Below, piece after piece: positions 21,809 to 64,000 of a stretch of DNA of 64,000 nt. The translations under genes were made by a program, and so were the position numbers. This DNA comes from Candidatus Gottesmanbacteria bacterium (GTDB taxonomy: Bacteria > Patescibacteriota > Microgenomatia > UBA10105 > UBA927): assembly GCA_023245335.1 (NCBI GenBank), contig JAHFKK010000001.1, positions 17,918 through 81,917 of the forward strand, read 5' to 3'. The notes beneath the pieces were generated by a model. The model was not told the DNA's origin, did no database searches, and was given only the letters and a program-made list of their open reading frames with translations. Numbering within the stretch: the first letter of the stretch is position 1; every line of letters begins with the position of its first letter.

Positions 21809-21811
21809 AGT

Positions 21812-23497: not shown

Positions 23498-23513
23498 TCT
23501 AGCCGAACTCGTG

Positions 23514-23542: not shown

Positions 23543-23549
23543 TAAGGAG

Positions 23550-24802: not shown

Positions 24803-24820
24803 AAAAGAATATGCCCGTCA

Positions 24821-24850
24821 TTGAAATACCCGTAACATATTCTTTATACT
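24821..24850 (+). promoter_or_regulatory. Sigma70-like promoter (TTGAAA-18-TATACT) 7 nt upstream of ATG 24858
   Basis: TTGAAA at 24821..24826 and TATACT at 24845..24850, with no SD between the -10 and the ATG. Confidence 0.35.
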
Positions 24851-24857
24851 GCAGACA

Positions 24858-25526: not shown

Positions 25527-25530
25527 ATTC

Positions 25531-27090: not shown

Positions 27091-27204
27091 TTACTATAGG
27101 TATCAATCTGAAAATAACTGAGGTACGCGTATTCTATCAATTTCAGGCAAACGAAGTATCTAAAAGGCAACCTGACGGCGAGGAGGCACATCTCGTTTCT
27201 CCTC

Positions 27205-27233
27205 TTGCTATAAGCCATAATATAGGCTATACT
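27205..27233 (+). promoter_or_regulatory. Sigma70-like promoter (TTGCTA-17-TATACT) 12 nt upstream of ATG 27246
   Basis: TTGCTA at 27205..27210 and TATACT at 27228..27233. The predicted TSS near 27240 leaves a ~6-nt leader with no SD. Confidence 0.45.
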
Positions 27234-27245
27234 ACTACGCTTGAA

Positions 27246-28058: not shown

Positions 28059-28100
28059 CGTCCTCTCGATTCATCCCGCCATTTTCCGTATGATAGAGGC

Positions 28101-29963: not shown

Positions 29964-29966
29964 TCT

Positions 29967-32501: not shown

Positions 32502-33417
32502 CCGACGGCTTATACTTATCGTTTTCCTGGGCATCGGCATAGGAAGCTTGGTACTCGCGGCCGTCGGACTCAAACCCTACCCGTCCCGGGCGGACGTGGT
32601 TATTTTTTCCCCGCATCCGGATGATTCTGTCTTATGCTGCGCTGGGGTTATAGAGCGGTCTCTAGCGGAGCATAAACGCGTATTGGTCGTCAACATAACA
32701 AACGGAGATGCGTATCCGCTTGCCGCTTCGCGGTTATTTGCAAAGCCGGAAAAACAGCTCACGCCCAAAGATATGATACGGTTGGCTATCGTACGTCAAA
32801 AAGAAGATATAAACGCTCTAAATACTCTTGGTTTAGACACTCAAAACATCATCTATTTAGCCTATCCGGATGGTGGGCTACCCGTTCTTTACCAGAGAGA
32901 TACGAAACCATATGTGAATCTATACACGCAAAAGTATGCAACGTATCGCGCAGCAATACGTGATTATCACTCCTCCATAAGTCCCATTCCCGCTGTATAT
33001 ACGAAGCCGTACGCCGTCGCCGACATATCCGAAATTATTCGACGGGCCAAACCCACGGAAATCTACACGACCGGAGACCACGACACCGCACCCGATCACG
33101 CCGTCGTCTACTTGCTGGTACGCGATGCAATAGCCCAAGTCGGATATACCGGAAAACTATTTACCACGGTCATCCACGCACCGAGTTGGCCGTCTCCGGA
33201 TGCTATCACACCCCGACAAGCCTTCCTGCCGATTGACATAGCCTATGGCTTATGGCAATCTACCGGCCTCCCCTGGCCACCGCCGGTACGCATCCCGATG
33301 ACAACCCAACAAGCGGAGAAAAAACGTATCGCGCTTTCGAAGTACCGCACGCAACTCATCCCCGGAGAACTTCCCCTCTCCTCTTTTGTGAAAAACGAAG
33401 AAATTTTTTGGCCTTAA
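32494..33417 (+). CDS. PIG-L/LmbE-family N-acetylglucosaminyl deacetylase with N-terminal membrane anchor
   Basis: VVIFSPHPDDSVLCCAGVI...VVNITNGD motif of the LmbE/PIG-L family. The ATGAATGA junction with the upstream gene suggests the start at 32494; the longer ORF begins at 32434. Confidence 0.75.
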   Translation: MNDRRLILIVFLGIGIGSLVLAAVGLKPYPSRADVVIFSPHPDDSVLCCAGVIERSLAEHKRVLVVNITNGDAYPLAASRLFAKPEKQLTPKDMIRLAIVRQKEDINALNTLGLDTQNIIYLAYPDGGLPVLYQRDTKPYVNLYTQKYATYRAAIRDYHSSISPIPAVYTKPYAVADISEIIRRAKPTEIYTTGDHDTAPDHAVVYLLVRDAIAQVGYTGKLFTTVIHAPSWPSPDAITPRQAFLPIDIAYGLWQSTGLPWPPPVRIPMTTQQAEKKRIALSKYRTQLIPGELPLSSFVKNEEIFWP

Positions 33418-33453
33418 CAGTTCATCATTCCCGTATCTTCTGAAAAAAACGAG

Positions 33454-36400
33454 TCATTTCTTTATCAACCAACCGCGGGCTTCGGCGAAACGATAGATCG
33501 GGAGTGCAATATAAGGAACAACCATGCCGATAGCGAACGCGGTGAAATCCTTAAAATCAAAAATATTTGTAGGTCTTAAGCGATAAAAAACGTATAGTTT
33601 TGCAGCAATAAACGCTGCAGTCGTAAATGGAATAAGGGCTAGTAGCTGTATAAGGCGCCTTTTGTTCAAATTAGGGTATAAGGCATCGACAGAAAGCTGG
33701 AAGAAGCCACCAAGCGCTATACCAGTCCCCAACCATCCAAGATTTTGCCTTAAAAAGGAAAAATTAAGATGTGCTAACACGGGAGCAAGATTCGCAATCT
33801 GTTGTGTAACGTTCTTATATATAGCGCTGGGTATACTCTCTATTGTTTCCCCGAGTTTATAGAACGCATCTCCCACAATAAGTGAGCTAACCGAAAGATC
33901 TGCTATGTCTTTTATCAACGATTTTGGTTTTGTATTTGAATTATTCTTAAGAAGTTCGTTAATGCGGGCTGTCAGCATGGGGCGGAGCTGGTCGGCGGTC
34001 ATGTTCGGGCTGTTTTCGAGGAGCGCCTGGTAGGCTTGGGTCTTTTCTACCGCTGCCACGAGCTGATCGACAGTAACCGGCTTCCCCTCTTGCTTTGCCG
34101 CAATCTGCTGTAGAGTTTGGATCGTATCTGCGGTCACAATGGCTTGGATTTGGGAATTAAGCTGCCCGTTCTGACCAGTAATTGACTGACTGTTATTCTC
34201 TCCAGGCCGCGTTAAAAACGCTACCCACTCCTGTGCGGTACCATGGGCTAGTAACGTTTGGTAACGTGGATCTGTACGCGGGGTTTTATACAGTCTATCT
34301 AAATCTAACTTATTCAATACGTTCCGTATCGCCTGCAATCCTACCTGCAAGTTTTCTCCCGATGGTGTATCCGCTGCGTTATGATAAATGAGTAAAAATA
34401 TCGTCGCGCCCTCCGAGTAATGATTCTGTTTGTCTATAAACAAACCGAATCGTTCAAAACGGATATTTTGAAACTCGTGAATATCTTCATCATTTAAGCC
34501 AAGTATCTGCGGCTGTCTTTGTGCCACTTCTGCGAAAAGCTGTTCCATCAGAACCGAAAACCCTTCACTAATCGCATCACTAACCTGTGATCCCACACCG
34601 CTTCCTCGCACACCTTTATCTGGACTTACAATCTGTTCAAAAATCGCGTGACCCAACTCGTGAATCATTGTTTCTACATCAAACACCTTCCTCTTTACCT
34701 TTTGGTGAGTCGAGGATTCCGTATATTCGTTCAGCGCAGCTAACCCGACATGTTCAAACGGCGTCGCTGAAATAATATCAATTTCGTGATTCGCATAGGA
34801 AGCATTCGGATCCTGGATTCCCCCTTCGTGAGGTATTTCCAATAAATCTCCGGGCTCATACTCATTAATCTTGATCACTTTCGGATCTATATATACTTCA
34901 GGAAAGAACCGCTGGTATGCAGTATTAGCAATTTTATACATTCCCACGACATACTGTGCCTTTGCATAGCGCCGAGCCGCATTCCAAACCGTCGTGAGGA
35001 TATAAGTCGGATCATTAAGTGGGTTACTGAGAGCCCATGTCGATTTCCCGAAGAAGACGCGGAATGTAATCCGCGCGAGATTGTTATAGACGTAAAAAAA
35101 TTGATCATATCGATCCAGGGAGGTATTCGTCATTCCAGTATCAAAAAAATTTCTCAAATACGCCGTTAAAGCTGCAATCTGCCCCGCGTCAAGCGTTCCT
35201 TTTGCAGCTGTTATCGCATGGTCGATAAATTCCGGAATCTCTGGCGGCATTTTCGCCTGATGCTGAATCCTCCACTCAAGAGGCTGACGCAAAAAATCTA
35301 TTATTTGGTCATTCATCATGAGCACAAATAATTCTGATCTCAGGGCCGATGATGAATATAATAAATGAACTACTGTATCTCTCGAGAGAGTGTTGGAAAA
35401 ATCAAATTGTCCCATTTCGAAGGCGATGGGTAATAATTCCGGATCCACGGAATGGTCCATAATGGACCACAACCGCTGCAAATCCTCTTGTGATACCTTG
35501 GGGAACATTTGGCGGAAAGCATTTTCATCAAGCAGATTTTCATTTGTATATTGCGCAATATGTAGTAAGCCCCCGTCTGAATATATTTGTGTGAAGATCT
35601 GTTTCATACGCGTGACTGAGGATATTAGATTATTCGGTAATGGCGTTGTAATTTGATTTTGCATTGAGTTATCACGATTATCGGCATTTACTGACTTAAT
35701 ATCGGATTGTAATGTCTCATCATTATTCACAATATTTCCGATTACGTGTCCACTCAAGCCCAGTTGAATTGTTTCATCTCGAGTTATATGCGGTATTATG
35801 GTTATTTGTGGACCGCTTCCCCGCTCACTCGGACCGCCGAAGTGGATAGCATTCCGGATCCTCTGCATCATCTCTCCCTCCCCCTGCCACAAATTCCTCC
35901 CCCGCCCGATCACCAAGCTGCTTGCCTTTTGCGTATAATGCCAAACCCACACGACTGAGCCGACACCGGTGGACATCAGGGACTTGAGAAACGTGCGGCC
36001 GACAAACGAACAGCCGCCGCCCAAATTTGCACCGTTTGAGGCAGCATATACGCGAGAGACTAATAGGTTGTATGTATAGCACTGATCATTATTTAACGTC
36101 TCTTTCATCGCCTCATACGCTGCTTTAAGGTCCTTCCCGGTTCGAATAGCGGAAGGAATAGCCTTCTCCAAAAATTTTGCCTGTGCGGCTACCTGTGCTT
36201 GGGCTTCCGGCTGTGCCGAAAGGATGGCGGCCTGACGGATTTTCTGATATCGTATTTCCGCGTTCATTGCGGCAAAAAGAGGGAGAAGAATGGCGTTTTG
36301 CGCCTCCGTAGACCGACGCAGGTAATTGGTGTTTGTGAATAATATTCCGAATTCACGGCTTGATAAAACCGCGTCAAATATTTCATCATTTGTATGTATC

Positions 36401-39400
36401 CGAATATCTTTTGTACTAGGTGAAATTGTTATACCCTCAACCGCCTTGGATATCACCGGCTCGAGTCGGTTATAGGCATCCCAAAGTACATAGTAACCCG
36501 AAAGATTCTTATTCTTGGAAAACGACGATTTTTGAGCATCAATACTATACTTACCCGACTCGACTGACGGACTCGTGGCAAATTGATTTTTCCGAAGCCT
36601 GCGCACCGTCCTTTTCCCATCTGCCAGCGTCACGTCATACAGAATAAGGGAGCCCTCGTTATATGGCTCGATCGCAGTCACGATCCCCGGCACCATTGTC
36701 CCATTCCCTTGCCCGACAAGGACAACGTCTTCAATTGCAATGCCCTCCGGCGTCGGAAGGTTTCGTTTCGTTATTGACCAAAGCCCGCGAATCGGTGCCG
36801 TTATGACTCCAATAAATCCCTTATTCGATTTATTGAGAATAGAATCGACACCCACCACTGCCTGACCAGTAAGGTAATCTTTCATCCATTTCCAATTCCA
36901 CTCCCACGCAATCGGTTTTTTCCACGTCCATGGCTTCCAACCGCCGGCAGTAAAGCGCTGCCAGTCTGTTTCGTAGAGAGGAAGCGTAACGCGGGCAATC
37001 TGTCGGGGGAATAGAAGCGGTGTCAATAACCTGGAACCAATCCATCCATATACGTTATGTATCGGTGTTGCGTTACGGATAAAATCCGGTAAACTGCGAT
37101 ACGTAAAATCCGCAGCGTCTAATACGTCAAATACCATCTGACCCACCTTCGCCTCATCCATCTTCCAGAAGGGAGATACCAGCTCGCCGCCTGACCGGAT
37201 GATGGAAACTACACCGTTTGCCACAAGTTCTCGGAACGATGTCGTCAATTGATCACTGAAAGTCTGAATGCTTGTATTTATATCGTCTCTGCGAGCGGCA
37301 ACCCACTGTGGAATTAGTCTCCACCAAACAGTATTCGTGGCTGGTACACTGGGACGGACAAACAATCGCAAATTTTCCTCCGCAGTTATGCTATATGTAT
37401 TCGTATCCGGCCTAGTAGACGCGTTCATCTGCTGGAATAGAGCTTGTGTCGGCAGCGGCTGAGGCCGAAGCTCCTCTTTCATTACACTAGGTTGATTAGA
37501 GTTTAGAATTCCTAAACGGGTTAACATATTTCTCACTGCGTTCCCTAGTCTTTGCCATAGTTGAGTAAGTAATGTCGAATTAGTTGTAGGCGAAGCCCTT
37601 ACGGACTGTTCTACTGGAAACACATATACTTTGGCAGCAGAATTGTACTGTCTGACGGTATCTGTTGCTTCGATATTCGGGCCATACACTAACCGTGCGC
37701 CATTTTGTAAAGTCGTCTGGATAAAGTTAGATCCGTGCAGATATCCCCAAAGTTGCGCGGAAAACGATGCCGAAAATTTCTTGAGTTGTGGGGCGTTGGT
37801 TGGTGATATTTTGGCATAGACACGCGGCGCTTCCAAAAGAAATCTCCTGGATGCCATCACGAACGCACGCGCTGTCTCCTGATCCGGTTGTCCTGATTGC
37901 GGGAGCGTCGCTATAACCCGAAGCAGTTCTAACCCGGCATCGGTATAGAGCTGCTTATATTCTTCATCGGTAGTTAAGCTTGACCGCAATGACGCAAATA
38001 TTCCCTGAAAATTTCGTATCGAAAGATCTAGCTGTAATATTTGCAGCCTGAGCGCTTTCCATAACTCATCATTCGTCGCGTGTTGTGTAACTGTTCCCCT
38101 CTGTTCTTTCTCAAATTCGATAGCCGGAATCCCCTCTGAGGCAAGCTGAAAAAATGGAAACAGGAAGTTCACCTGCTGGAGCGTTTCATAATGACTCGCT
38201 ACATTCGAATTTTTGGCGAATATATTCCAAAGCAGTCGTATTTTTTGTTGATCGGGAGGGATGCTTAAAAAATCCATATACATGGCTTTTGATACGAGAA
38301 CGGCTTCCACATCCTGATCACTAAACAATTCAGAGTGCCCGCCATATGTTTTTGTTTTATATTCATCATTGGCAAACATATCCGTAATCTCCGCATAAAG
38401 CTTTTGTGCCGTATCGCTCAGCTTCAGATTGGCCCGAAGGGGGTGAACACTATCAACGATGAGGAAAATATCGGTGTCATTTGGTATGGGTCCGGTCACC
38501 GTGCTGCCGTATACCACTTCTCTGGGGTTGGTAATAGCACCTGCTATCTCTAACTCCCGTACTGCGCCATGAAGCGAAGCTAACTTTTGCTGAAGTACTC
38601 GTGGTTGATTTGCAAATAGCCTGATGTCTGTCGTTCCCTGCCGTAAATTTCCCGCCCTGCCCGTAACTACCTGCACCGCCTCCCCAGCCTGCTGCCATAG
38701 ATTCAGGACCAATCCCACAGGTTTCTGCCCATAGTGCCATACCCAAACTATCGAACCAATGCCGGTAGACATAATGGATTTAAGGAACGCGCGGCCGGCA
38801 AACGAACATCCACCATCTGGGTTTACCCCGCTTCCAGCTGCGTAAACGTGCGGCACCAATGAGTTATAGGCATAACACTGATCATTTGCTATAACAGTGA
38901 GAAGTAAATCAGGGAGATTTTGCTTCGGCGTGACCGCCGCGCGATCAGCTTGAATCGTATTGATGGTAAGTCTGGAAGAGCTTGCCGGGTTAAACGGAGG
39001 ACGGGATTTGAGTATCAACGCCTCCGGACCGTTTGTTTTGAGATACGTAGCCAAATCGGTAAGATACGTATTCCCACCTTGTGTTAGCGCGATTGAGGTA
39101 TCGTCTTTTATAATCCAATTAGACGTGGGATCATCCGACTTGGCTTGCTCTCGTGAAAATCCGTTCACTGCAATCCAATCCCCCGCCTGCTTCAGTGTAG
39201 GTGCGCCCTGCCCCGTTGATTTATATAGCAAGATTCTATTCCCTGTTGGAAGTTCTAATTCCAAAAAATCTCTATCTGACACTAGCTGTCTATCTAATAC
39301 TGCAACGTTCGCGGGATAAAACGGTACCCCGTTCAACCCGTTATTTCCGGTCACTTTTTGTTGAAGATTCGCGAGTACCTCTGTGGCAACCTGATCCGAC

Positions 39401-42400
39401 GGTACATTGATTCTCCACCGTGCCACTATCGTCCCCTTGTATGGTGCGACCGGTTCTGTCACACCGGTATAGAAGTTACTTGGGTTATACCCTTCTCCCT
39501 TTATTAAAATGGTAAAACTGGGATCTTCGGCGGCTAACGATATGTTTGAATACCCGAATAATCGTGCTTGTTCCGTGATTGCCAGTGGTGCATTTTTCAG
39601 TATAAGAAATCCGTTCAGTTCGAGAGTCCTTTGCGCCTCCGCCAAAATATCTGGAAGTGTCGCTATTGTTACATCCGAAGCGATCACTGCACCGACACTA
39701 TTATCGGGAAATGGTAAGTTTGTCCCGCTATCTACGAAATTCAATGGATGCGTGGCGCCAACAAAATCACCTAAAGCGGTTCCAGCATACGGACTTGATT
39801 TGGCGGGGACCATCTGGGAACTTGATACTGTCTTACTGAATCCTACGCCATCAACCGCTTGTCCGGTAATATCTATATACAGACCACGGGGCGGATGCAT
39901 GTTTGCTGCGAATTCCACAATATCCACTACATTCTGCGGTATCGTGAGTAGCGGTTGAATGAGAGTCTTCTCGACGGACATCGACGACACATTCAATACG
40001 CCTGTCGGCTGCGGCTTGGGCGGATTTTCTGTCACCAATACACCCTCCTCACGCGATGTATTGGTAAGATACCGCTGCATGGCGGCCATGAATATCGCTT
40101 TCACCCGAGCCTCATTTTCCGCATGCACTAATGGAGCACCGGGCGGCTCGTTGGCGGGATTCGCATACAGTACCGTAATCTCCAGATCTTCCGGATTGGT
40201 CATATCCAGCTTCCATGATCGGATGGTACCGCGAGTCGAGAAAGGATCCAAGAAGCTAAATACGCCGTCTCCGGACAGATTGTCTGCCACCATGCCCTGT
40301 ATAGTTTCCCGCCAGTCCGCCTGAGCTAAATCATTTTCCGCCGCGCCAAACGCCTCAGTGAACTGCGTCTGACCTATGAGACGGCCGTCTGAAACAATGC
40401 CGAGATCCTTTCCGACCACCGTCGCACGTACATCGTACGAGATCCCATCGCGCACTTGATATATTCCGGCAAGCGATCTCGAAATTTGATTGATCAGCGC
40501 CTGCGCTTCTTGCGGGCTACCGACAATCGTTAGCTCGAAATCTCCGCCTTTTCTGAGGATGTCATACCAGGCAGCCGACCCCGTCTCTCCCATGTGGTTA
40601 GCCACAGAAAGCCTATGAAACATCTCTTTGATAAACGCGTTCCCTGCCGCATCGCCATAGGTATCATTGATAAGCTTCAATATTCCCGGCACACTGACGT
40701 GGAGTAGATATACTGACTTCCCGTTTGACGAAGCCTTCGTGAGTCGGTCAGTTAACGTACGGAACGCATGATCGAGGTAGTCCTGACGGTAGAGAAACGA
40801 CTCCATGTTCTCCTGTGCGGCTTCGGTAAAAAGTACCGGATCAAGGAGTGCCTCCTCGATAAACAGCTCGTATTTCGTCCTCACTGCCCACGGTATTTTA
40901 TCCAGGGCGGCAAAAAAATCAGCAAGTTCCGGGTGTATGGCGATGACTCTACTCCGCTGTAGACCCGCAGGTAACGGCTCGCTACGGTCCAGTAGTTCGG
41001 CCCATTCGTCAGCGGCTCCCGGGAGCGCCCGTACACGGGCCTGGTCATAGGCTACCGTTCCGCCTTTGACACCATATAGGGCAAATACTCCGCGTAGTTT
41101 AGCGTTCAGCTCGCTCACAATATCCCCCAGTGGCGTACGCGAAACAATCGCTAACGTATCCCCGTTTACCCGTATATCCCAAGTCGTGAGATTGTGCGAT
41201 TTTTGCAAATCGATAATCGTTTGAGCAATGTCATGTATGAGGACATCTCCGGTGACGCCGTATGGCTTCGCCCCGGTTTGATTTGCGCTGTACACGTCTT
41301 TGATGTCGACGGTTGCCACATAGAAGTTTGCACGGACCAGGCGGGGGAAAACGAATGAGGAAAGTATAGAAATCGCATTTCTGACAGTGCCGAAATGCGA
41401 TAAGATGGTTTGTGTCCGGTCCGGAGTCGCTACGTTGCCGTTTTCCGTAATCCTTGGAGTCTTCGGAAATGTTGCACCGGCGATGTCACGATTCAATCCT
41501 GGATCCAAAAGCCGGTTGTTGGCAAATAGATTAAAAAAGTTTATTTGAGATACCGGCATACCCGCCAAATCTGTCTCAGGGTTGAGATAATAGAGTGTCT
41601 TGATGACATCTTTGACCGTCGGATCTAGGGGTGCTATTGGACCTCTCGCAGCCGGTGCGCCCGTGGGAAGCGGAATGTTTTCGGGCGCTTCCTGAACCGG
41701 TTGGACTCTGGGTTCAATACCAAATAGTGGATTAGTATATACTTTGAACCATTCTGTAGCCTTTTGTATCACTGTGTTAATCGCTACCGTTACGAATTGG
41801 GAGTTCGATAACGATTCAGGAGTGATGTCTTCCGCCGGACTCGTGTTTCCGTACCTTTCGTTCGGTAATATGACGATCGGCTCATTGAGATTAGGTATAT
41901 CTAATACATAGGTCTGGTCGTATATCGTAAACTCTGCCACGTATCGCCTCGTAAGACCTACGGCAACGGTCCGTAGCGTCGGCGCAAAGGTTGCCAGATA
42001 GGGATCCCGTTTCATCGCCGCCACAAGTGCAACCACACCGGCATCCCGCTGAGAAATAGTCCGGCTAACATCCGGTATCGCCCGAATCGCTCCACGAACA
42101 GCAGATTCGTTTGCTGCCAACTGACTAATCACTGCATCCCGCAGGCTATCCTGGTAATACGGTCCGATTTTCTGCTTCCAGACAGCTGCGGTCGGATAGT
42201 GACCGATCACGGAGTCTATAACCGGTATACCGTGCTCGTCCGCAAACGCATGCGTAGGAATTTGGTTTACGATATGATCCTGCCCGTTTTGGGTCGCGAA
42301 GATGCGCACCCGCTTCTGGGCAACCAAAGTGACCAGGGTGGTATCCCATTGGATGACCGGCTTATGTTGGAGGATGTCATACCACCGAAGCGTATACGGT

Positions 42401-45400
42401 ATATTCTGCTGATTCTGCCGGTGCACAAAATCCGCATCGGATACCGCCGGATCACGGGTAAGTCCGCTTAACCGGGTATCAACGATCAATTTATCTACCC
42501 CCAACAATTTTGCGAAAAATAAAAGCGGAACCCGTACTAATTCCGGAGTCTTAGAGTCATTGACGGTCCGATATGCCGTGCCTAACCAGGGTACGCGAGA
42601 CCACTTATCATCAAATGCCGTGATCGTATCCGGTCCCAGGAGATACGGCGATAACAAACTGAAGTCCGAATTCATGTCTTCTACTAGATTAGGGTTCGCC
42701 TTTGCGTACTCGAGGACTATTTGCGCGCCAGTCGAATGCCCCAGGAAACGAACCCGTGTTTTTCCGTTTCCGAATGCAAATGTCGCCTGATCAGCGCTAG
42801 TTGCGGTCAATGCTTTCATGAAGTCGTTAAATTGCCCAAGCATACGTTCGTATTGGTATGTACTCGATGTCCCGGCAAAACTTCCCTCTCCGCCGCCCAT
42901 GGTTGGTGCCACGGCTATCTGGCGAATTCCATCCGTCCCGTACGGCACAAGATCCTCGCTCATGGGTTCGGCAAATACCCTGCGGTCCGCCTGAAATCCA
43001 TGCTGGGCAACGATGACTTCCGTCGCCCGTTCTATGCGTGTCTGTGCTTCGTCACGAAGTTGGTCGGGAGATACGTCCGCAAGTCTCGATCGATCGCCCG
43101 GAGTCAGCTTCGCCATCCACAAAACCGGTGTGTATTTGGCGCCGTAAAATGATGGATTCTTCACGGGCTGATACCCGGAAACATACAACATATCGCCTTC
43201 TACCCGCGCTACCCCTACGAACTGATGTTTGGCATCACTCGGACCGGCTTTCACCGCCTGTGCTAGATCCTGTCCCAAGCGATCCGGCAAGTTGTACTGC
43301 CGTGCCGTCCACCACGTCCCGACATAAGTTGTAATCTGCTGTATGAGGGGGGTTACGCTGTTTAATGCTGCGGCAATCGACCCAAGCCACCCAGGTAACA
43401 CGTGAATAAAAGATGACGGTAACAAGCTCAGTGGTCCTTGATTTGATAAGTGAGAGGCCTTAAGCGGTGGATTAACTTCTGCAGGTTTTTCATCAACGCC
43501 GTTTAGATAGTTTAGATATTCAAGTTTTGGATACATGTGCTTACTTACGAAGTAATAGTTATCCTTATACGGCGCGTTATATAGAGCCGCCAAATTGATA
43601 TCGTTCGGAAAAACACTTTCCTGAGTAAACCGCAAAAGCCCCTGAACATCACCCGGTAATGTCTGCACTGGAGACGACAATAATTTGCCGTTCGCATCGC
43701 GGATGTTTATCCGCAGGCCATATGTGATAAAGGCTTGTGTGCGCAAAATACCAAAATTCACACTAACATCTGTTATTTCCGCAATGGGATATGCTCCATC
43801 CTGAAAGGTTGCACCACTCTTACTTTTATAACTTAGCCACGACCCGACACCCTCCGTATACTCTTTTACATTCCCATCTGGAGTAAGAGACAATACATTT
43901 TCAATGCCGGAGCTAATGGTGCGCACATCTGGTCGTGATTGGGCGTATGTCAATACTGCTCCCTGCAACAATTTCCCCAACCCGGCGTTGCGGGTGTCCG
44001 GAGAAACGTAAATAAATTGTGTATAAAGATCCGATTTTTCTTTGTTGTACTCTCCTCCAACAAATCCAAGGGCTTTTCCACTCAAATCAGATATAACTAA
44101 TGTAAAAAATCCTGGTTTCGCTTGGTCAACCCATTGTCTGACTTCTGTTAACTGAGCAAAGGCTTCCGGAACCTTTGCAGAAACGGTGACTCTGTATTGC
44201 CCGGAGGAGTCAGCCATAAACGTATTATTCAAAGGTACGGTCGGATTTATTACTGAAACCGCCTGCGGCGGCGGTTGGGATTGAGGCTCGATATTTTCCG
44301 TTACTGACAGTTGCGGCGTCTTTAGGTATTGCCGTATCGGCGAAAGCGCCTGTAGATTATCCTTGTGCTGGATGACATCTTCAAACCCCACGACATGACT
44401 ATTTAACCACTCGCGCACGGTCACCCCGTCCGGATAGCGTCCCCTATCTTCAAGTCCAAATCCACCAAGATGATTCCAGGCATCGGAAAGAATCCATTGC
44501 TTAAATAGCTCCGCATCTTTGCGTGTACCAACGATATAGAGCAGGTAATCCGGTGGAATAAAGGTCTGATTCAACTTTTCATCAGTCACTTGGATATCCG
44601 ACTCTGATACTCCCTCAGGCAAAACCGTGACAACGGCATATCCGTTGAAAAAATCTCCTGCTGAGGCACCGATTGTGGACTTGCCAAAACCACCTAGCCA
44701 TAGCGGCTCATGTTCATTGGTACGGAGCCCAAAATCTAAAATATTGCGCAGTCCCTGGGCAAATTCGCCTATATTAGTCGCATTTATCGTAACGGAATGA
44801 CCGTTAATTTCGGCGTTTTCCAATATTTGACGCACTTCTTCGCTCAAAGAGCGAAACGTACTATCTCTGATATTAGCCGTCATCGTTTTTTCTAAGGCCC
44901 GGTACCCTGCCGAGTCTATCCAATACGACTCGCCCTTTCCGTTCGATAAGGTTAGCGGATGCGCACGAAGTCCCGTGGTAAATCCGAGTTGACCATAGGT
45001 TGCTGACTGGGCTATCATCGGACTCAAATGGGTATATTGCAGCCCGCCAACCGTCATTTCTTGAGGATTGATAGAAGGATTGACATGCAGAAGTAATTTG
45101 CCAATCGTCGGTTGCTCTGTTGGACTCAGCGCCTGGACAATCGTCACTACTGGTGGATCTACCAACATTGCCGCAAACTTCCCCGTCGCAACAATTACGT
45201 CCCCGACTGCACAATCATTTAATCCTGCAACATTGTTTCCCTGTGCATAGACGGGAGGAATAAGCCTCATCGCACTCTCACCACAGGCTTTTTCCCGTAA
45301 TGCTTCCGCTTGCGTTGTGATTGTCTTCTTCGCAGGATCCGTGATCGGTGCATATACTGCTTTTAATGATTTATCCGTCTGGACAAGTGGTACGACAATC

Positions 45401-54400: not shown

Positions 54401-57400
54401 TTTGCCAGTTGAGTTCTCTGTGCCGTCATGCGCTGCAATGGATTTACATCGTTTTGCGGGATCAGATATCCGTTCATCTCGTCCACCGTCATGTCGCGGT
54501 GTATACCTAACTCATCGGCCAGAATCTGCGCATTCCATTGGAAATCATCCAGGGTTTGTAACTGCTCGGGAGATGCGTTTGGAATGGGTTTCGGTGTTTC
54601 CTTCCCTATCCGGATCGGTGTGAGGGCGAGTTGGTTTGTGGAAGTTATGTTTACTCGGGCGACAACATCGCGTCCCAAAAGAATCTGCGTTCCGTCTCGT
54701 AGTATTCTTCCTTCCACGGGGACAACTATCAAAGGAAAATCCTCCATGCCGGGATATACTATCTGCGTGCTCGTTCCCGGACTGAGTTCCGCGTCATCTA
54801 CCATCCATGTCTTCGATTCGAGGTTAAAGTATATTACCGCGTGTTTTCCCAATACCGTTGGGATGGTTGCAGGATCAAACTGTATCGCATTATCTACATC
54901 CGTACCCAAACTAATCCAACTGCTCTTAGTAAAATGTTCAGTCGGATAAAACACCCGAACAGTTCCCACATTTACTGCAGCCGCGGTTTTCCCCTTCCCC
55001 GTCCGGCGCCAGACCCGGAATGCATTATCAGGTTCTTCCTTCACAAATCCCGCTGCTTGGTAAAATGCATTGAGCCGGGCCGATAAATCGACGAGGTTGT
55101 CGCCTGCTTTATATCCCGCCGGAGACGGTATGACGCGTACTCCCACACTCCCGGTATTGAGATTTTTGGCGGCTTCCAATAGGCGGGTACCGATATTTAC
55201 CCCCTGATAACTAGGATCCACAAACAGTACGCTTATCTCATCCAAATCGCCCGTAGGAGAAGTCTGTACCGCGACAAATCCGGCAACCGCACCGTTATAT
55301 TCGTCTCTTGCGATAAGGATCGCAGCGTTATTGAGTGATGCCGCCAACGGGAGATTCGTGATACCAGGATTTTCTTTTTGAACGCGCGCAAGCATCCCGA
55401 CGACGTCATCCGCTGTCCCTTGTTGTACCGTCACATCGACCGCAGTAAACAAGTTACGAAGTGGCGTGACCATGTCCAAATATTGTTGATCAGTGATGCT
55501 CTCGTCTCTCTGTAAATTATCGACTTCACGACCCAATTGGTTCACCCGGATTTGTCTCGCTGCAGCGCGCTCGGTGGCCGCACTCTTCGTATTGCCTACG
55601 CCGGTATATGCTTCCGCGAGCATTTGGTGGATATACATCTGGGCCGCAGAAAAGATGAGCGGGTTACTGTCCGTACGCTTGCCGTATTCCGCATTTACTG
55701 CCGTGAGCGTCGTCGTCAGATCCTGTATTGCCTGATCAAATTCTCCGTTGGCAAGCCGTGCGTCAATTGCCGAAAATTGTCGGATGAGGCTTGCGACATA
55801 CTTTCCGCAGTCGTCACAATTTTGGTAATATTCGTCCGGTTGACCATCCGAAGTTTTGGGAAGTATGGCTGCCCGTTGCAGCATCGCAACGATGACTGCG
55901 GTCAAAAATGACGGCTGCGACGGGGACTCCGGGATGCTCGCCGGGAGGTAGATAACCGGGCTATCCTCCTCCGGCATCATTTGAGCTACCTCACGGATAA
56001 TGTTCGCTTCACGCTGGGCGGCTGGATTTTTCCTGAGTATTGCCTCAAGCGTTTTGAGGTCCTGGAGGCCTCGTTGATAGTTCGCGGTACCGGGCTTCAT
56101 TAACGCTGACTCAAGTGACGTAAGGAATTCATGCATATTCTCGGTAGGCCCGACGGGAATACCGACTTGCGCAAGTGCAGTTGTCGCCTCTTTGATTGCC
56201 GCTCTCGTCTCTTGAGTATTCTCGAAAGGTGCCTCCACAGTCTCTACCGCGTTCACGATCACGCGGCGTACGCTCTGCACAAAATCCGGGGATTCTATGT
56301 GCTTGTTTTCCGACGCCAACGTATCCCGCACCAACTCCAATGCGCCTAAAAGTTTCGTGGCTGCCTGCGTATCGGTTATGGCATCCACCTGGCCTGTTAC
56401 CTCAGGACGCGTGAGGGCAAGAAACACCGAGAACACAGTAGGGTTAGTTTCCGGTATCGTGACGCCGGCATTGGTAAACGCCCGGACGACCTGACCCGTG
56501 AGCGTCCGTAGGTCTGCTTCACTCATATCCCCGCGTACAATATGGCCATTTATTATCGCCATTTCCCGTACCACTTCGAGCATCACGCTTTTTATCTGAT
56601 TAATTGCCGCAAGCAGCTCAAGCGTCACTGCAGCCGTCGTTTGAGGAGTAACGATGATAGGGGCTGGGCTTTCTTCTTCCGCAGCAAATTCACTTATTGT
56701 TGTCGTATTGTCTACGCTTACCGGGACTAAATGCAGCTGCTTTTCCAGATTATCTATCTCGACAGTTAGACTTTGTAACACGGCAGTGATACGACCAAGG
56801 GTAAATACGCTCTGTGCATCCGATTTATCCGCAAGACTGAGTTGATAATCGGATAGTATCGACGCTAATTCCTGAGTGACCTCCAACTCACTTATTGGCT
56901 CCAAACCTTGTGTCAGCTGCCGTACTACCGGATCTATGTCGGCGGCTATCGCGGGGTCAAAAGTGGCGCTTCCCATATCCGCCACCAACTGTGCTGCTAT
57001 GGATAGCAACTGTTGAACGGGTCGTTGCGGCAATGGATTCACTTCATTTTGGATAAACGATCCCACTATGTTTGCCTCATACTCGGAAGAGGCAACTACT
57101 TCAACCGATGCAACATGAGACAACATCGGTGCCACTTCTGCTATTGCGCGATACGTTGCTGCTAGACTGTCCGAAATATCGACTCCGCCTTTTCCGGATC
57201 CCATAATCGGCAATGCTATCGTCTGAACCCCTGCAGCATCCGCCTCCAAAAGGGCATTCTTTATGCTCTGATAAATCGTATCGGTAGTCATAGGTATACG
57301 GCCCGCATAGGTTGTATCTGGAATGTAGCCTGTCGCTATAGCCTGAATAATGTATTTAATTTTTGTCTGAGAAAAACCCCGAGCTATCTGCACTACTGCA

Positions 57401-60400
57401 GAACCTATATCAAACGGCCCGTGATTTTCCACAAGCGCAACCGCGTCTACTTGAGCCAAACTGACTGAATTCGCTGGAACAAGCCGGAGATTTGCGTATG
57501 CCGGGTGATTTTGCCAATATGAGTCCGCTGACGAAACGACTCCGGATGCACGGCTTATTCTTCCTGCAGTGCCCGATACCATTGCTAAAAAGTTATTTGC
57601 AGAATTAACGACAGCGTCAACGTCAGCTTTACCTATATTTCCTACCGCTACACCGATCTCAATAGGCGTCCCGTTCTGACGGGACAGTGAATGACTCAAG
57701 CGAACGACAGGAATCTTTTCATCAACCAGTATTTCCCATGCAGTCCGAAGCGCATTTTCTTTATCTTTAAGGGTAACCCCAGCTGGCAGCCGTCCTTCAA
57801 TTCGGCTTGCTACCTCTGCATCAACAGCAACCTGGGGCGCGTTCTTCCAACTGTCTTCCGAAATAACCGCTTTATATGTTTCATATACATCGCGAATAAT
57901 TGGATTTGTTAACTTATTTTGTATCGCATTAGCTGTTACAGGACCCGTTGGGATTTCTGTATCAAGCGTCAAGAGCATAGGATCCTGTAAATACGTTTCT
58001 ATATCGTGGCGTTCGGTCAGCAAACTCTGTAACTGCGTTTCAATTTCCCGAATGACAAATTTCGCTTGCTCTATCTTTGAAGTTAAACTTTGATCAATAC
58101 TCTTTATTTGATTTCGTAGCGCAATGACACGGGCGTCAGCCTGATCAACACTCCCTTGTATGTCGGCAAGTTGCTCTTCGGCTCTCCGCAAATCAGCTTC
58201 TGCTTTTGCCTGTTGTTGTACGAGATCAGTTTCATTACTTTGAACCGCCGCCACGACCTGCGTTCCTTGCTTATCAATACGTAGAAGGCTCATATCCCGC
58301 TCTCTCCTAGCGAGGTAACTGAAATACGTTATTTGTTCTTGCTCAAACGCATTCCTTCCTGCAAAATTCATCCAACTTCCATGATCCTGTGAGCCACGAT
58401 TCAATCCCATCTCCTGATTCAGCCGGATGACCTCTTCTGCTACTTGATTATCATCCATTCGATCCAATCTGACCGTCGGTAGACTATCCAACACGTGTGC
58501 CCCCGTCAAATATTTACGCAAATACACATGGAAATCATCTTTCTTCTCACCCGAATTTTGCGGCCCGTTATATACTATCTTTCTCCCGTATTTTGATGAC
58601 AGTTCTTCGGCGATAATCGTACCTATGCCGACAAACCGCCTGGAAGCGCGGAGTGCATTGCTTTTGTCATGGAGAAAATATGCGGCAGACTCACCCATGT
58701 ATTCAAGTGCAGTTTTCCCAGTCGAAGCTACTAAAATCTGTATATTATTCTGATGAGCTAATGATTGAATTTGTGCAAATTCTGCTCGTTGCGCTACAAA
58801 CTCTGGCACGATCATTGCGGAAATCGCCTCGGTAGGAACAATGGCAGAGGTTTCTCGTACGGTCAGATCTGCATTCAGACCCCGTAATTTCGCCATTGCT
58901 CTTATGCGGTCTTCGTACGTCTTAAGCTCATCAGGACGAACGCCGATATTAAGCTGGGCCCCTTTGTTTGGATCTATCTGCGCTTTACCGAGCCAGTCCA
59001 ACGATCGCTGGCGGGTAGCTTCGACGAGCGCCTTTGTCCCACGACTCAGGACGTCATTGAACCCGCCCCAAAGAGCTTCCGCTTTGGATCTGCCATTCAC
59101 ACCGGAAAGATCCAATACGTTCCATGGATGTTTTATCCCGGGCTTCCACTTATCTGACGTACCCGGCATGGTTACCTGATCATCAAAAACCGTCGCATCC
59201 AAACCTTTGCCAATAAGCGTGATGAACCCATAATCAGATCCGATGCCACCGACTTTAAAATTCACTCCCCGTTTGTAGTCATATGAATAAATAATTTTGC
59301 TTGTAAGAATTCCAAGCAAAGACTGTAAGTCAGTTCTGTGTGTCGGTAACACCAATGAAAAAATATTTGTTTCTTTGTCGTTTCTGAAGCTCTCTTCACG
59401 ATAGACTCTGGCCATTTCACGATTATATGTATCAAGAGTTTGATACAAACTCCGTTCTCGCGAACTTTTTGTTTGATCACGAAGATCCACATAATATTCC
59501 CGTAAGGCTTCGTGACGCGCAGCTAACAAATCACTACTTGTAGAAGACGTGAGTAACGCGTTATTTTTCTTCACACCGGCTATATCCGCTCTGTTTAAGG
59601 CATATAAAGCATTTATGTCGTCTTCTGAAGTAATGGATTTAGCAAAATCCTGGACATATCTTCTCCATGCCGCATCTACTGATTCTCCCGGTTTGGCGCC
59701 AAACACCTCCCGAGCTTTTTGTTCATCGGAATAATTTTTATAGACAGCGATATTCCCTAACACTTCATGATACTGAACGAGGAAAAGAATACGTTGTTGC
59801 CGATCCGAAGATACACTAAGCTCATCAAGAATCGTTTTTGTGAGTCTGGTTGATTCTACTACGTGATTCGGCTCCCTCCCTCGTTTTTGCGGATCAAGTC
59901 CTAATCTATTGGCCTCCTGTGCTCCTACTTTACCGATATCATGAAGTTGAGCAGCCAGTATGAGATCTTCTGCGTTGTATCCCTCGGGGATAATTAAATT
60001 CCTTACGACCGCATCCGTGTGGCCTCCGATCGTAAAGTCGTGAAAACTATGTTGCGCCTCATCTTTAATTTGGGCCCAACGACGTGCGTACGTCGGGGAA
60101 GTATTCAAAGCCGCTTGAGCGGCTGCCACATCAGTATCGGTAACTGGTCGCGTTGTGGGGATATCAGACCGCGCTCTCAATCCGCACGATACACAATCAA
60201 TCCGCTCCTTTAGTTGGGATAACTGGCTCGTAAATGCGCTTACGAGTTGTGACAATCTTGATTTATCCTTCTCAAGGAGGGCCTTTTGATCCTGTAGAGC
60301 TTTTTGCTGATTCACTTCGCTCAAAAGATCTCGCTCTAATTGTTGTTTCTGATTTGAACGTATCACTTGAGCTTCAAAATCACTCTGCTGTGTCTTCAAC

Positions 60401-63400
60401 CGTTGTAGTTCCTGCTGAGCCCATGTTTGTTTTCCTTTCACGGTTCCGAGGTTATTTTGCTCTTGGACAAGTAATAATTGCCGTATATCTATGACCATCT
60501 CATTGACCTGACGTACATATCCGGCTACCACGACAACTGGCTGGCTCTCTAAAAGTTTTGCTGCAGAAAATGCTTCACGCAGATTCTCCTGCTGTTTCTG
60601 TCGGATTTCCTGCATGAGACCCTGAACGACTATTTGGGCATTTTGGACATTAACTCCGACGCTTCGGGTATCAGGCGTTATTCTTAACGGCTGGCTTGAT
60701 GTAACTGCGGGCTGTGATGGATTAGTACGGCTAACAGGTCCTACTGGCTGTACAACGGGCTGTGGTTGTTGAGGTTGAGCCAATCTCGGAGCAAGTGAGG
60801 TATTTAATTCGTCTATCACCGCCAATGTTGCGCCCACATTGGACAGATTGGCAATCGATGAGCGAATGAGGGTCAAAGCTTCTGTAATGCGTCGTGCCTG
60901 ATCAGAAGTCATTTGATCAATAGGCGTCTCTTGTAGCTCGACAAGCGCGACTTCTACATCACTCCGTTCCTTCTCTGTCACATTCACCTGCGGTTGTTCA
61001 AACGCCAACCGTATCTGCTGAACTTTTTGATTGAGATCCGGCAGTGACGCAGTCTGTTGCGGCTGAGCAGTATTTACCCGTAGCACGTTTCCAATTTGTG
61101 ACTGAAGTTGTTGGGATTGACCGTTGCGGAAATACAATCCTGCCCGGACGCCGTCATTTATTGCCGTTGCGATCCAGTTTACCCAAGCGGGCATCACAAA
61201 CAGGACGCGCTGGGTGACATATCTCCCCCACGCCGCGCCGTCTTGTCCCGCAGGGATCTGGAAAAAGTCAACGATTCCCTGCAGGGCCGGAACCGCCGCG
61301 ATAGCTTTGGCTGTCTCCAGGTAGGAAGCAGGATTGTTTCTATACCATACCGCCTGAACAAGATCGAATCCGAATACAACGGGCAAACGGATAAACCACG
61401 GAATCAGCGTACCCAGATTAAGTACGATACGACTCGTCGCATACCGGGTGGCTCCCCGTGCCCCACGGCCGAGCGGTCCCCGTGATATGTCGGCGAGCCC
61501 CGCTCCGAATGACTGCGACGGCGCTACTGCCGGCGCAGCGGTTACGGCCGGTGGTGAAACCGGTCGGGCGCCGGGGGGCACGGGCGTTACGCCGAGCACG
61601 ACATCTCCCTGCTTCACCCAACCGACTTTTTGCCCGTCGGCACGAACTACATACCACTGCGAGTTTGCAGGGTTACTGTCCGGAGACCATAACTGCAGTG
61701 TCGCGTCATCGGCCTGTGCCACCCCGTGTTCATCCGTATAGATGACCCGGACGACGGAATTGTTTTTCATTTCCTGCCCTGCGTAGAGCGTTACCGTGTT
61801 GACCCCCAATTGATTGGCCGACAGTGCTTGCGGCGTTGTTGTCGATTGCGTCCGTGGCTGTCCGTAGAAATTCACTTTTCGGAATACCTGATTCTTGACC
61901 ACCTGGCGATAAATATTGAAGACCTCGATGGCTCCGACCACGATCGGACGGACAAAAATACCGCCGGGGATAAATGATGCCGCATACATCGGCAGCCGTG
62001 CCGCGGCAAATCGTCCAAGGGTACCGGGAACATTTGCTTCGGTATTCAAGAATACCGTATCCCCCACGCCCTTCAAGAAGTCCGACACGCCGCGCAGGAA
62101 GTTCGTAAACGCGTCATGTCTAGTGGAATCAATAATTCTCGGCAAAGAAATCGGAGAAGATCCCGACGCGCGAAATGCGTACATAACACCCTCGACCACC
62201 GCATGTCCCCCGTCAAAGATCAACGAGATTATAGATCCTCCGAACATCCGCAGCGCCGTCCGGCCGACATATCGCCCCACCCCGCGCCAGCCCTGACCCC
62301 AGAAAAACGCGTCCCACGTGTCATGAAATCCTTGCGAGAACGTCGTCGTCTGCGGGTTTATCGGACCAGCCGGTTGAGCGGAAGGAATCGTCGCGGCAAT
62401 CGGTGTCGCCGGTTTATACGTCCACTTCCATTTCCATGGCGTATAGGTTGACAGTGAAAATATCGCTTTGTATCCGCCGCCATTCGTGAAACGGGTTACG
62501 TCGTTATGAATCATCGGCCCACCGACGATGCTTCCGATTATGGACGCGGTAACCGCCGCGGGACCTATGCCGAGCCCTATCAACCGCAGAACCCATGAAC
62601 CGGTTCCCAAAAGCGCAATCGGCGCGAGAAATACATGAAGCGCCGGTATGAGACCCACTATGACTCCTGCTATCGTAATGAGTGCCGGGATGACGATGAC
62701 GGCAAACGTGACAAGCGTGGGAACGATATAGAGTCCCACTGCAACAGCCCGCGATATGAGGAATCCAACGGTGTTATTTTTGAGTGTGGCATTTACAAGC
62801 GCATTCGGGATAAATCCAAACGTTCTTCCTTCCATACTCCAGTAGTCCGGCAACTCGTACCCATGGGTGTGAAGCGGCGACGCCCTGCCGGATACGTGCT
62901 CTACGTAGTGCTGCCATACACGGAATCCGTCCCAGTAAAGTAACGTGTGATTCCCGATCCGGCTAAAGACATAGGAAACGGTACTAAAAAACGCCGATAT
63001 GGGATTCCATTGCGGATCTCCTATCCCTAAAAATCTCGCGTTCGCGATGTCTTCCACAAATCCTTTATCACTGCCCGCCAAAATATTTTTGAGTGTTTGT
63101 ACCGGTTGTCCGGAGGTATCTTTCGTCAAAAAGTCCGTATACTTGGTCGCGATAAAGCGCACCAACGGTAGGAAAAGCTTCTGAACGGGATGCGTGGCGC
63201 TATTTCTGGCCATACTGTCTGCGACCGTCTGAAAATCAAGTAACATGAGGTTTTGGAACCATACGGCTCGTGCCAATCTATACGGGATGGCTTCGGCGAC
63301 AATCCGGACCAAATCAATGCCGGCTATGGTAAGCGTCACGGGAAGTCCCGCGCCGGGAATAGCAAGCGGCGCTGCATACCGAAGAACCGCACTGACAATA

Positions 63401-64000: not shown

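Follow-up and report, generated by a model that had tools for sequence, protein, structure and literature searches.

A 64,000-nucleotide stretch of DNA from a Candidatus Gottesmanbacteria bacterium (GenBank assembly GCA_023245335.1, contig JAHFKK010000001.1, positions 17,918 to 81,917; here called the window) contains on its minus strand a single genuine giant gene, which is cut by the window edge and whose visible part encodes 10,181 residues. Its product belongs to a lineage-specific, syntenic and mosaic family of giant proteins from Gottesmanbacteria-like bacteria within the candidate phyla radiation (CPR). This family is defined by its genomic locus, by a series of anchor modules and by a previously unremarked punctuation motif, which we term the Cys loop. 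The window protein displays all three, in that its gene is convergent with a YfhO-like gene, its anchors are colinear with those of its relatives, and Cys loops occur in an otherwise Cys-poor sequence. With moderate confidence, we view it as a multi-enzyme protein that is anchored in the envelope, works on the cell surface or where the cell meets a host, and is possibly processed.

A single giant gene at the window edge

The minus-strand frame from 33457 to 63999 comprises 10,181 sense codons without a single stop, so that at least 30.5 kb of the gene is visible; with its stop codon at 33454-33456 the open reading frame (ORF) occupies 33454..63999, still open at its 5' end where the window stops. 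Residue i of the visible protein begins at window position 63999-3(i-1), and all features of the protein described below are accordingly on the minus strand. No other stop-free stretch in the window exceeds 845 codons, and the probability of encountering no stop in 10,181 codons is ~1e-222 given the base composition of the window. An earlier reading of this DNA, made from its letters alone (the sequence-only reading), had described a frame open from 33457 to the window edge that could not have arisen by chance, and the codon count, the position of the stop and the coding signal all bear this out. In each of the 20 bins of 500 codons, a codon-usage log-likelihood trained on 24 neighboring genes takes a positive value for frame 0 and negative values for the other two frames; hence, the whole of 33457..63999 is coding and does not represent a chance ORF.

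The first ATG lies at 63904-63906, behind 31 in-frame sense codons, in exact agreement with the sequence-only reading. Few genes of this genome (2 of 22) have a Shine-Dalgarno motif, and the absence of one before this ATG is therefore uninformative. We infer, as that reading had proposed, that translation starts beyond position 64000. This is likely because four positional counterparts in related bacteria measure 11,849, 13,064, 13,507 and at least 11,274 residues, although another (L094) has only 7,176. The full-length gene probably has about 11,000-13,500 codons.

Two lines of evidence bear on the concern, raised in the sequence-only reading itself, that the frame might be an assembly chimera. 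First, an independently assembled contig (L089; Logan SRR14366796, 17,138 bp) is 100% identical, without gaps, to window positions 25295-42432, an overlap that spans the last 8,979 bp of the giant ORF; the other ~21.5 kb has no independent assembly match. The second line, which is the stronger evidence for a real gene, is synteny. The order NPCBM-glycosyltransferase, YfhO-like, (PIG-L), convergent giant gene is present in six of seven relatives, and these six were assembled independently and from different samples. At this locus the giants comprise 13,064 residues in L091 (ENA ERZ27237554), 11,849 in L082, 13,507 in L096 (GCA_049322955.1) and 7,176 in L094 (GCA_001780985.1, MFJV01000001.1), and those of L093 (at least 11,274) and L092 (at least 3,140) reach the ends of their contigs; in the seventh relative, L095, the giant is absent from the locus.

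In light of these ORFs of 7,176-13,507 residues at one position in six genomes, the exact match over 9 kb and the uniform, unbroken frame-0 signal, we regard it as very improbable that the ORF is an artefact, be it a chimera, a merger of adjacent genes or a region yielding separate proteins from internal starts. The ~21.5 kb without independent assembly support speaks for such an artefact, as does the fact that L082 encodes one module of the window protein in a gene of its own. A third point on that side is that the corresponding region of a long-read relative (L087 1-21026; ENA ERZ1286166 contig_442, 996 kb) contains about 20 short, consecutive same-strand ORFs, without Pfam matches, around two Beta-lactamase2 fragments. 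This run most likely represents a giant gene of the same type fragmented by uncorrected long-read indel errors, which have been noted for giant genes (10.1101/2023.11.21.568195).

The relative L082 was found via P0001, a homolog of one module of the window protein, which is encoded beside the 11,849-residue gene with the same NPCBM and YfhO-like neighbors. Here (L082 8865-11590) the P0001 module is a gene of its own, separated from the giant gene by a small YafQ-toxin-like pair, and in L094 the NPCBM gene has a HicA/HicB pair immediately upstream. The giant-gene locus seems to be flanked by toxin-antitoxin pairs.

Word-indexed homolog searches with residues 1-1033 and 5501-10181 returned no match. 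The same database yielded P0077, the product of a neighboring gene, at 100% identity, and neither the window giant nor the L091 giant, which have a 15-residue exact word in common. Very long proteins are thus evidently unindexed, and this null is no evidence of orphan status. The N-terminal 500 residues had no match in genome contigs or metagenome contigs, and the alpha/beta-hydrolase alignment described below had none in metagenome contigs. In the literature that we searched there was no description of giant genes in Microgenomates or Gottesmanbacteria, nor of these syntenic giants, which stand unannotated ("hypothetical proteins") in public assemblies such as GCA_001780985.1.

Domain architecture of the visible protein

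Recognizable domains are indeed present, but the "many" of the sequence-only reading overstates their number. Five Pfam families reach their curated thresholds, namely Macro, two GNATs, Beta-lactamase2 and a borderline partial DnaJ, together covering ~7% of the length; with weak and comparative evidence included, all modules cover ~19%. Sequence searches of the PDB with the whole protein gave only macro and bla-like matches.

The N-terminal half contains modules of regulatory and nucleotide-related types. An HD phosphohydrolase-like module (59746..60042, residues ~1320-1418) has the H...HD...HE signature and scores just below the cut-off of Pfam HD (E=8e-4, 20.2 bits vs 22 bits). A Macro domain (57070..57663, residues ~2113-2310), predicted to bind or hydrolyze ADP-ribose, is recovered by Pfam (32.6 bits vs a 22-bit cut-off), by the NCBIfam ADP-ribose-binding model (1e-11) and in the PDB (2dx6, 1e-5). 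It is followed by a first GNAT acetyltransferase (55042..55329, residues 2891-2986; Pfam Acetyltransf_7 1e-8, above cut-off). An insertion-interrupted J-domain-like segment (49555..49803, residues 4733-4815) matches Pfam DnaJ over profile positions 1-26 only (helix I-II; residues 4733-4758), with 27.6-28.2 bits against a cut-off of 27.8. The HPD tripeptide is absent from residues 4733-4815, the sole HPD of the protein being at residue 3655, and a functional J-domain (DnaJ/Hsp40) was rejected on this ground. An FHA-like stretch at residues ~3004-3130 was spotted by eye and has no hidden Markov model (HMM) support.

Two isolated CxxC pairs, DCVSCG (60184-60195, residues 1269-1272) and NCDDCG (55807-55818, residues 2728-2731), contain the sole cysteines of the N-terminal half; the CDDC pair recurs in the L082 giant, and both are possibly metal or redox sites. 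In addition, the Gly-rich linkers GGEGGGAKPDGGGTGAGGEGG (53341-53412, residues 3530-3553) and GAEGGGGAGPGGGG (51901-51945, residues 4019-4033) bracket a segment of ~470 residues without any database match. The first linker coincides with a step in third-position GC content (GC3), and the bracketed segment resembles a discrete inserted cassette.

The C-terminal half contains a serine hydrolase module related to class A beta-lactamases and penicillin-binding proteins (PBPs) (46819..47577, residues 5475-5727; Pfam Beta-lactamase2 1e-17). In this bla-like module STIK is kept, SDD stands for SDN and KIG for KTG, and no Glu166 equivalent is found at the Omega-loop position, as judged from an alignment with a TEM-1 reference. 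The NCBIfam bla_class_A model matches it at 8e-15 with 54.6 bits, far under the 200-bit cut-off. A true class A beta-lactamase was rejected on both counts, and the module looks like a penicillin-binding or DD-peptidase-type serine hydrolase. A full HMMER search with residues 4881-6080 against 1.84 billion representative proteins placed closest to it fusions with VanW or LysM (P0003, P0005, P0012, P0016), among them also P0002, a protein of 4,445 residues that also bears SecA_DEAD, P-loop_SecA and SecA_SW.

Next to it lies a Cys/His module (45436..46713, residues 5763-6188) that is homologous to P0001 (34% identity over 432 residues, E=1e-61), a stand-alone protein of 529 residues with an N-terminal membrane anchor. 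Cys5878 (VQCVxW) and His5980 (NHTF) are invariant between the two, which suggests a candidate papain/NlpC-P60-like hydrolase of unconfirmed fold; the module has no match in Pfam, and neither it nor its profile has one in the PDB. A second GNAT acetyltransferase (43915..44166, residues ~6612-6695; Pfam Acetyltransf_1 1.4e-5, 25.8 bits vs a 20.7-bit cut-off) precedes an alpha/beta-hydrolase module (41851..43278, residues 6908-7383). The latter is the best-conserved block between the window and L091 giants (40% identity over 490 residues), with an invariant triad in the order Ser (GHSTG), Asp (DHIV) and His (GHY). Its Pfam support is weak (Abhydrolase_6 and Hydrolase_4; E=0.011), and the fold is a tentative assignment from sequence.

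A tandem GGDEF-like region with the palm of nucleotidyl cyclases follows (40141..41670, residues 7444-7953; Pfam GGDEF 1e-4, 22.6 bits vs a 23.8-bit cut-off). It aligns with the L094 giant at 26.5% identity over 547 residues by BLAST (30% by MAFFT), its profile matches diguanylate cyclases in the PDB at 3e-4, and the L094 region itself matches Pfam GGDEF at 3e-8. The first L094 copy has the canonical RTGGDEF, whereas the signature is degenerate in the window protein (NGDTL and GGDFE, with VSVPG at the metal-Asp site). An active diguanylate cyclase was rejected for want of the GG[DE]EF loop and the metal-binding Asp. A stretch weakly resembling S-adenosylmethionine (SAM)-dependent methyltransferases (39595..39744, residues ~8086-8135; Pfam Methyltransf_11 E=0.011) matches in relative position a methyltransferase domain of L094 (Methyltransf_25/31). 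A Pol-beta nucleotidyltransferase motif, GS...DTD, was spotted by eye at residues ~8498-8515 and is without HMM support. Finally, a zincin-type HExxH (MIHELGHAI, residues 9780-9788, within 34537..34677) lies in a region with a Pfam Peptidase_M32 match below cut-off (8e-4); hhHExxH recurs in seven of eight giant fragments, and the L093 copy is a Peptidase_M48 match. Several of the hydrolase modules are probably active.

The protein is non-repetitive. Apart from two trivial 2-copy rows there are no coding tandem repeats in the ORF, and self-comparison of the protein reveals one internal duplication only, of 75 residues. A repetitive giant adhesin of the Ig-like, cadherin, RCC1 or dockerin types was rejected for these reasons. 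A megasynthase for non-ribosomal peptides or polyketides was likewise rejected, as neither Pfam nor NCBIfam scans of the visible protein detected condensation, adenylation, ketosynthase or carrier domains.

Conserved anchors and proposed replacement of cassettes

The giants of the relatives, which were read over their C-terminal ~3,000 residues, share with the window protein the locus, the order of anchors, in most cases the Cys loop, and genomes of ~1 Mb. They differ from it in that only patches align, at 25-40% identity, and that lengths diverge by thousands of residues. BLAST comparisons with L094 and L091, and Pfam matches on L094, show that the order bla-like domain, GGDEF-like region, methyltransferase, C-terminal hydrophobic region is kept. 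L094 contributes bla-like and GGDEF-like blocks in this order, followed by the methyltransferase. L091, whose flanking gene is 63% identical, aligns in three colinear patches: the alpha/beta hydrolase at 40%, a Cys-loop module at 44-47% and the C-terminal hydrophobic region at 25%. The ~1,500 residues between the last two of these anchors are of similar length in both giants, and there the similarity of window residues 8437-9976 to L091 865-2344 is no better than in shuffled controls. The visible parts of the L092, L093, L096 and L082 giants have no BLAST match to the window giant, while the flanking genes are 47-64% identical. Conversely, LytR_cpsA_psr (LCP; L094), Peptidase_M48 (L093) and FHA (L092) were seen only in the visible parts of relatives, and some modules of the window protein are unseen there.

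The C-termini differ as well. The L093 and L096 giants end in a Cys-rich domain (~650 residues, 34-40 Cys, 40% identical over 690 residues) that is absent from the window protein, and L082 and L091 have in common a different C-terminal module of ~400 residues. The giants thus appear to carry alternative C-terminal "heads".

GC3 along the giant ORF is blocky, ranging from 0.36 to 0.60 with a standard deviation twice the binomial expectation, as against 0.53 +/- 0.02 in 22 neighboring genes. In bins of 250 residues it is ~0.58 over residues 1-1000, ~0.40 over 1001-2500, ~0.55 over 2501-3500, ~0.41 over 3501-4750 and ~0.54 over 7001-8000. This pattern suggests segments imported from lower-GC relatives, the related loci having 42-50% GC. 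Patchy colinear anchors, non-aligning intervals and blocky GC3 together fit a giant gene that is a mosaic, in which cassettes would be replaced between conserved anchors.

The Cys loop

The window protein contains 11 cysteines (0.11%, vs 0.67% in the neighboring proteins), and six of these form three copies of the motif C-x8-10-[VA][YF]A[QAG]-x4-16-C, each with V-Y-A-[QA] as its core, at residues 6239-6263, 8375-8398 and 9307-9330. The first (45211..45285) reads C-GESAMRLIPP-VYAQ-GNNVAGLND-C. The second and third bear conserved extensions (38665..38877, residues 8375-8445, homologous to L091 806-864; and 35857..36081, residues 9307-9381). With these extensions they constitute the sole internal duplication of the protein, at ~60-69% identity. 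Every V[YF]A[QA] of the window protein falls inside a Cys loop. Elsewhere we found three copies in P0002, two each in L082, L091 and L096 and one each in L092 and L093, giving a total of 14 in 34,271 residues where shuffles predict 0.15; the motif is absent from all other ORFs of the window and of the retrieved loci. The L094 fragment has no Cys at all, hence no Cys loop. The second Cys of the loop often precedes [SP]-x-F-x-R, and one L082 loop directly follows a transmembrane helix with a basic N-flank.

A residue V or A at position -3 and A at -1 is the rule for cleavage by signal peptidase I. The Cys loops could thus be processing points bridged by a disulfide, as we propose from the motif; most loops, however, have no preceding hydrophobic region. 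A fuller version of this idea holds that the giant is a secreted polyprotein, in effect an operon in one polypeptide, which is cleaved at its Cys loops or by the zincin that it carries, so that its enzymes are either freed or held by disulfide tethers. It is compatible with the envelope-anchored multi-enzyme reading, to which it adds a processing step, and we consider it unlikely, if a serious contender. The motif is far from random and peculiar to these giants, V[YF]A[QA] is confined to the loops in the window protein, its V-[YF]-A|[QA] bond, often with a Gly-rich stretch behind it, recalls a -3/-1 signal-peptidase-I site, and the L082 arrangement resembles a signal anchor followed by a cleavage site. 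Also in favor are the recurrence of hhHExxH in seven of eight giant fragments, with the Peptidase_M48 match in L093, and the presence in a relative of one module as a gene on its own (P0001). Moreover, processing has been proposed for other giant proteins (bioRxiv 10.1101/2023.11.21.568195; PMC13104272). Against these points stand the hydrophobic h-region that signal peptidase I normally requires and most loops lack, the Cys-free L094 fragment and one P0002 loop with a probable location in the cytoplasm; a structural or binding role of the motif is equally conceivable. We regard as distinctly improbable the still more specific proposal of cassette-swapping surface polyproteins, in which an exported enzyme chain would be nicked at disulfide-bridged V-[YF]-A|[QA] loops and its inter-anchor cassettes would recombine between strains.

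Proposed topology and function

A crude hydropathy scan delineates three hydrophobic clusters, with ~6-9 helices in total. The N-proximal cluster (62509..62775, residues 409-497) comprises 3-4 hydrophobic transmembrane helices, with a peak of 2.83 in a 19-residue Kyte-Doolittle window. The central hydrophobic segment (49351..49467, residues 4845-4883) has 35-39 residues, forms one long or two short helices and has arginines on its N-terminal side. The C-terminal region (33457..34071), which is 25% identical to L091 2345-2582, contains two hydrophobic helices (residues 10114-10139 and 10151-10172) and a basic tail. The scan detected no hydrophobic segment between residues 4883 and 10114.

In the reading that we favor, the central segment would split the giant into two halves. 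The N-terminal half would bear the "cytoplasmic-type" modules HD, macro and GNAT, with the J-like segment abutting the membrane, and the C-terminal half would be displayed outside the membrane. The extracytoplasmic placement of the latter is suggested by the fusion of the nearest bla-like relatives to VanW or LysM, by the LCP domain immediately upstream of the bla-like domain in L094, by the N-terminal membrane anchor of the P0001 homolog, and by the location of all three Cys loops in this half, where residues 4883-10114 lack a hydrophobic segment. There, the PBP-like serine hydrolase, the Cys/His module, the alpha/beta hydrolase and the zincin would act on polymers of the wall or surface, belonging to the cell itself or to a host cell to which it is attached, and the protein would probably work with the adjoining conserved surface-glycan cluster (YfhO-like, NPCBM-glycosyltransferase and PMT_2/GT-C proteins). 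Retention of the order of anchors with replacement of the sequence between them would be expected of a surface or interaction protein under diversifying pressure, and the disulfide-type Cys loops with their V-[YF]-A|[QA] site would be candidate points of processing or bridging. The topology, substrates, processing and host-interaction role are what we infer from these features, and the role in host or prey interaction is suggested by analogy with the literature.

A number of points weigh against this reading. The topology was read from a simple hydropathy scan, and a hairpin is an alternative for the central segment. For the remaining ~80% of the visible protein, Pfam, NCBIfam, PADLOC and PDB sequences gave no match, and structure prediction for the Cys/His module gave unusable models (predicted local distance difference test, or pLDDT, of 31 from the single sequence and 40 from a 2-row alignment). 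One P0002 loop follows a SecA-like ATPase with no transmembrane segment between them, which speaks against all loops being extracellular disulfides. The absence of alignment between the intervals of the giants could partly reflect rearrangement into unread parts of the relatives' proteins. The window contains no signal peptide, secretion-system gene or adhesin domain. Lastly, the modules of the half proposed to be external include GNAT, GGDEF-like, methyltransferase-like and nucleotidyltransferase-like ones, which need cytoplasmic cofactors. GNAT, GGDEF and methyltransferase modules use acetyl-CoA, GTP and SAM, respectively. Three explanations offer themselves: an incorrect topology, modules that are inactive or structural (the GGDEF signature is degenerate), or activity in another cell.

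The last possibility leads to a different picture, that of an array of translocated effectors in which the protein or its fragments enter a host cell and the macro, HD, GNAT, GGDEF-, methyltransferase- and J-like modules strike host targets in the manner of MARTX or other multi-effector toxins. It would account for the sharing of one transmembrane-free stretch by cytoplasmic-cofactor modules and cell-wall-type modules; cassette replacement and blocky GC3 would fit an arms race, and CPR bacteria are largely episymbionts (PMC11665869). We nevertheless give it a slim chance, in view of the absence of RTX repeats (there is one chance GGxGxD) and of a cysteine-protease autoprocessing domain from the visible protein, and of LXG, Rhs or PT-type toxin markers and secretion-system genes from the window. 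The J-like and GGDEF-like modules lack catalytic signatures. PADLOC found no defense system in the window save a chance Cas8a fragment, and no match was toxin-like.

Relationship to known giant proteins

The envelope-anchored multi-enzyme reading finds its closest described parallel in the "Archaeovorins" of Omnitrophota, giants found in ultra-small bacteria, non-repetitive and with transmembrane segments (West-Roberts et al. 2023, bioRxiv 10.1101/2023.11.21.568195). Cell-wall degradation and proteolytic processing have been proposed for these proteins (10.1101/2023.11.21.568195; PMC13104272), and they pose the same puzzle of "cytoplasmic" enzymes predicted to be extracellular (10.1101/2023.11.21.568195). 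The window protein is alike in outline, with sparse, divergent enzyme domains (methyltransferases, peptidases, GNAT, hydrolases) in mostly unannotated sequence; this likeness is one of description, and we do not claim membership. It differs in phylum, apparently in having few rather than numerous transmembrane segments (three clusters by the crude hydropathy scan), and in size, since 10-13.5 thousand residues count there as "large" (>=10,000) and not as "giant" (>=30,000). Pfam and motif scans of the visible 10,181 residues detected no SecA_DEAD or other SecA domain, Walker A motif or DEAD box, and a SecA ATPase within this part was rejected; HEAT repeats, glycosyltransferase and NUDIX domains were also absent from Pfam scans at E up to 0.5.

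A link is nonetheless offered by P0002 (L081, JGI 3300013138, Ga0172371_10008871, 143-13480), which combines a bla-like domain and Cys loops with the divergent SecA_DEAD typical of the Omnitrophota giants. This protein is complete; HExxH occurs in it twice, Beta-lactamase2 is paired with VanW, one lone hydrophobic segment lies in mid-protein, and there are three Cys loops and a C-terminal divergent SecA made up of DEAD, P-loop and wing/scaffold regions. P0002 possibly connects the present family with SecA-bearing giants of other phyla.

The resemblance to MARTX toxins is an analogy of working only, in that one polypeptide carries an array of unrelated enzyme modules releasable by proteolysis. 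The window protein has no RTX repeats, cysteine protease domain or type I secretion genes, is predicted to be held in the membrane by hydrophobic segments within the chain and at its C-terminus, and has two to three times the length. An RTX/MARTX toxin was rejected, with one isolated GGxGxD and no Pfam match.

Among CPR bacteria, large adhesin-type surface proteins are known from Absconditicoccaceae and Vampirococcus (PMC8080830, PMC13059738), and "huge proteins" are enriched in Peregrinibacteria (PMC11573180); in a complete Microgenomates genome the largest membrane protein has only 2,228 residues (PMC7143001). The adhesin-type and "huge" proteins are likewise unusually long membrane or surface proteins of ultra-small genomes, thought to mediate host contact. 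They are, however, mostly of 1,500-5,000 residues and rich in adhesion repeats (fibronectin III, adhesin repeats, concanavalin), whereas the window protein lacks adhesion repeats and is studded with enzyme modules.

Lineage of the bacterium and the neighboring gene cluster

The sequence-only reading had placed such proteins in streamlined lineages, which agrees with the affinities of the neighboring genes. An 844-residue neighbor is 100% identical to P0077, located on a 1,218,111-bp contig (the public gene call begins 11 codons later), and its named homologs, at 48-54% identity, come from "Patescibacteria group bacterium" and "Candidatus Gottesmanbacteria bacterium". The related contigs measure 0.99-1.09 Mb. 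In a genome scan a DegT neighbor gave matches only at ~50% identity, spread over many phyla. The organism is a Gottesmanbacteria-like CPR (Patescibacteria) bacterium by these gene affinities, with a genome of ~1.2 Mb. By our arithmetic the visible giant ORF is 2.5% of the genome, if the 1.22-Mb contig is the whole of it, and the gene for the 13,507-residue relative is 4.1% of its 0.99-Mb contig. On the plus strand C exceeds G in every 2-kb bin of window 1-64000, regardless of gene orientation, and the cumulative GC skew falls monotonically across the window. Whole-chromosome strand asymmetry of this kind has been described for Microgenomates genomes (PMC7143001), and the observation is hence consistent with the lineage assignment.

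Window positions 1-33417 hold a surface-glycan and envelope gene cluster. It includes a pair of DegT aminotransferases, glycosyltransferases of the GT2 and GT4 families, a Wzy_C ligase, nine large polytopic membrane proteins of PMT_2, GT-C or YfhO type, a protein combining GT87 and NPCBM, and a PIG-L deacetylase. The genes nearest the giant are NPCBM/GT87 (28101-29963), YfhO-like (29967-32501) and PIG-L (32434-33417). The nine polytopic proteins (492-844 residues) stand in a row at 12697-32501, amid GT2, methyltransferase and sugar-modifying genes. Lipid-linked-sugar transferases are thus unusually dense beside the giant gene, and they might glycosylate its product or the wall. Two further products of the cluster (7043-8467), one with DUF7282 and one with leucine-rich repeats, both have a hydrophobic segment at the N-terminus and are candidates for surface exposure or host binding. 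Scans of the window with Rfam and for tRNAs found nothing.

Conclusions

CPR bacteria have tiny genomes and few known means of handling hosts. A gene that takes up ~2.5-4% of such a genome, that is found at one locus lineage-wide and whose sequence is recast from one relative to the next probably plays a key part in how these bacteria live. The locus, the anchor modules and the punctuating motif supply a testable family, and its SecA-bearing relative links it to the better-known giants of Omnitrophota. The PBP-like domain, the alpha/beta hydrolase and the Cys/His module are pointed out as assayable modules, and the Cys-loop motif offers proteomics a specific bond at which to ask whether giant bacterial proteins are processed. 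If the proposal of cassette swapping is true, a gene of 30-40 kb would be the hypervariable host-interaction organ of an episymbiotic CPR cell, and the Cys loop would be a new kind of processing or punctuation signal.

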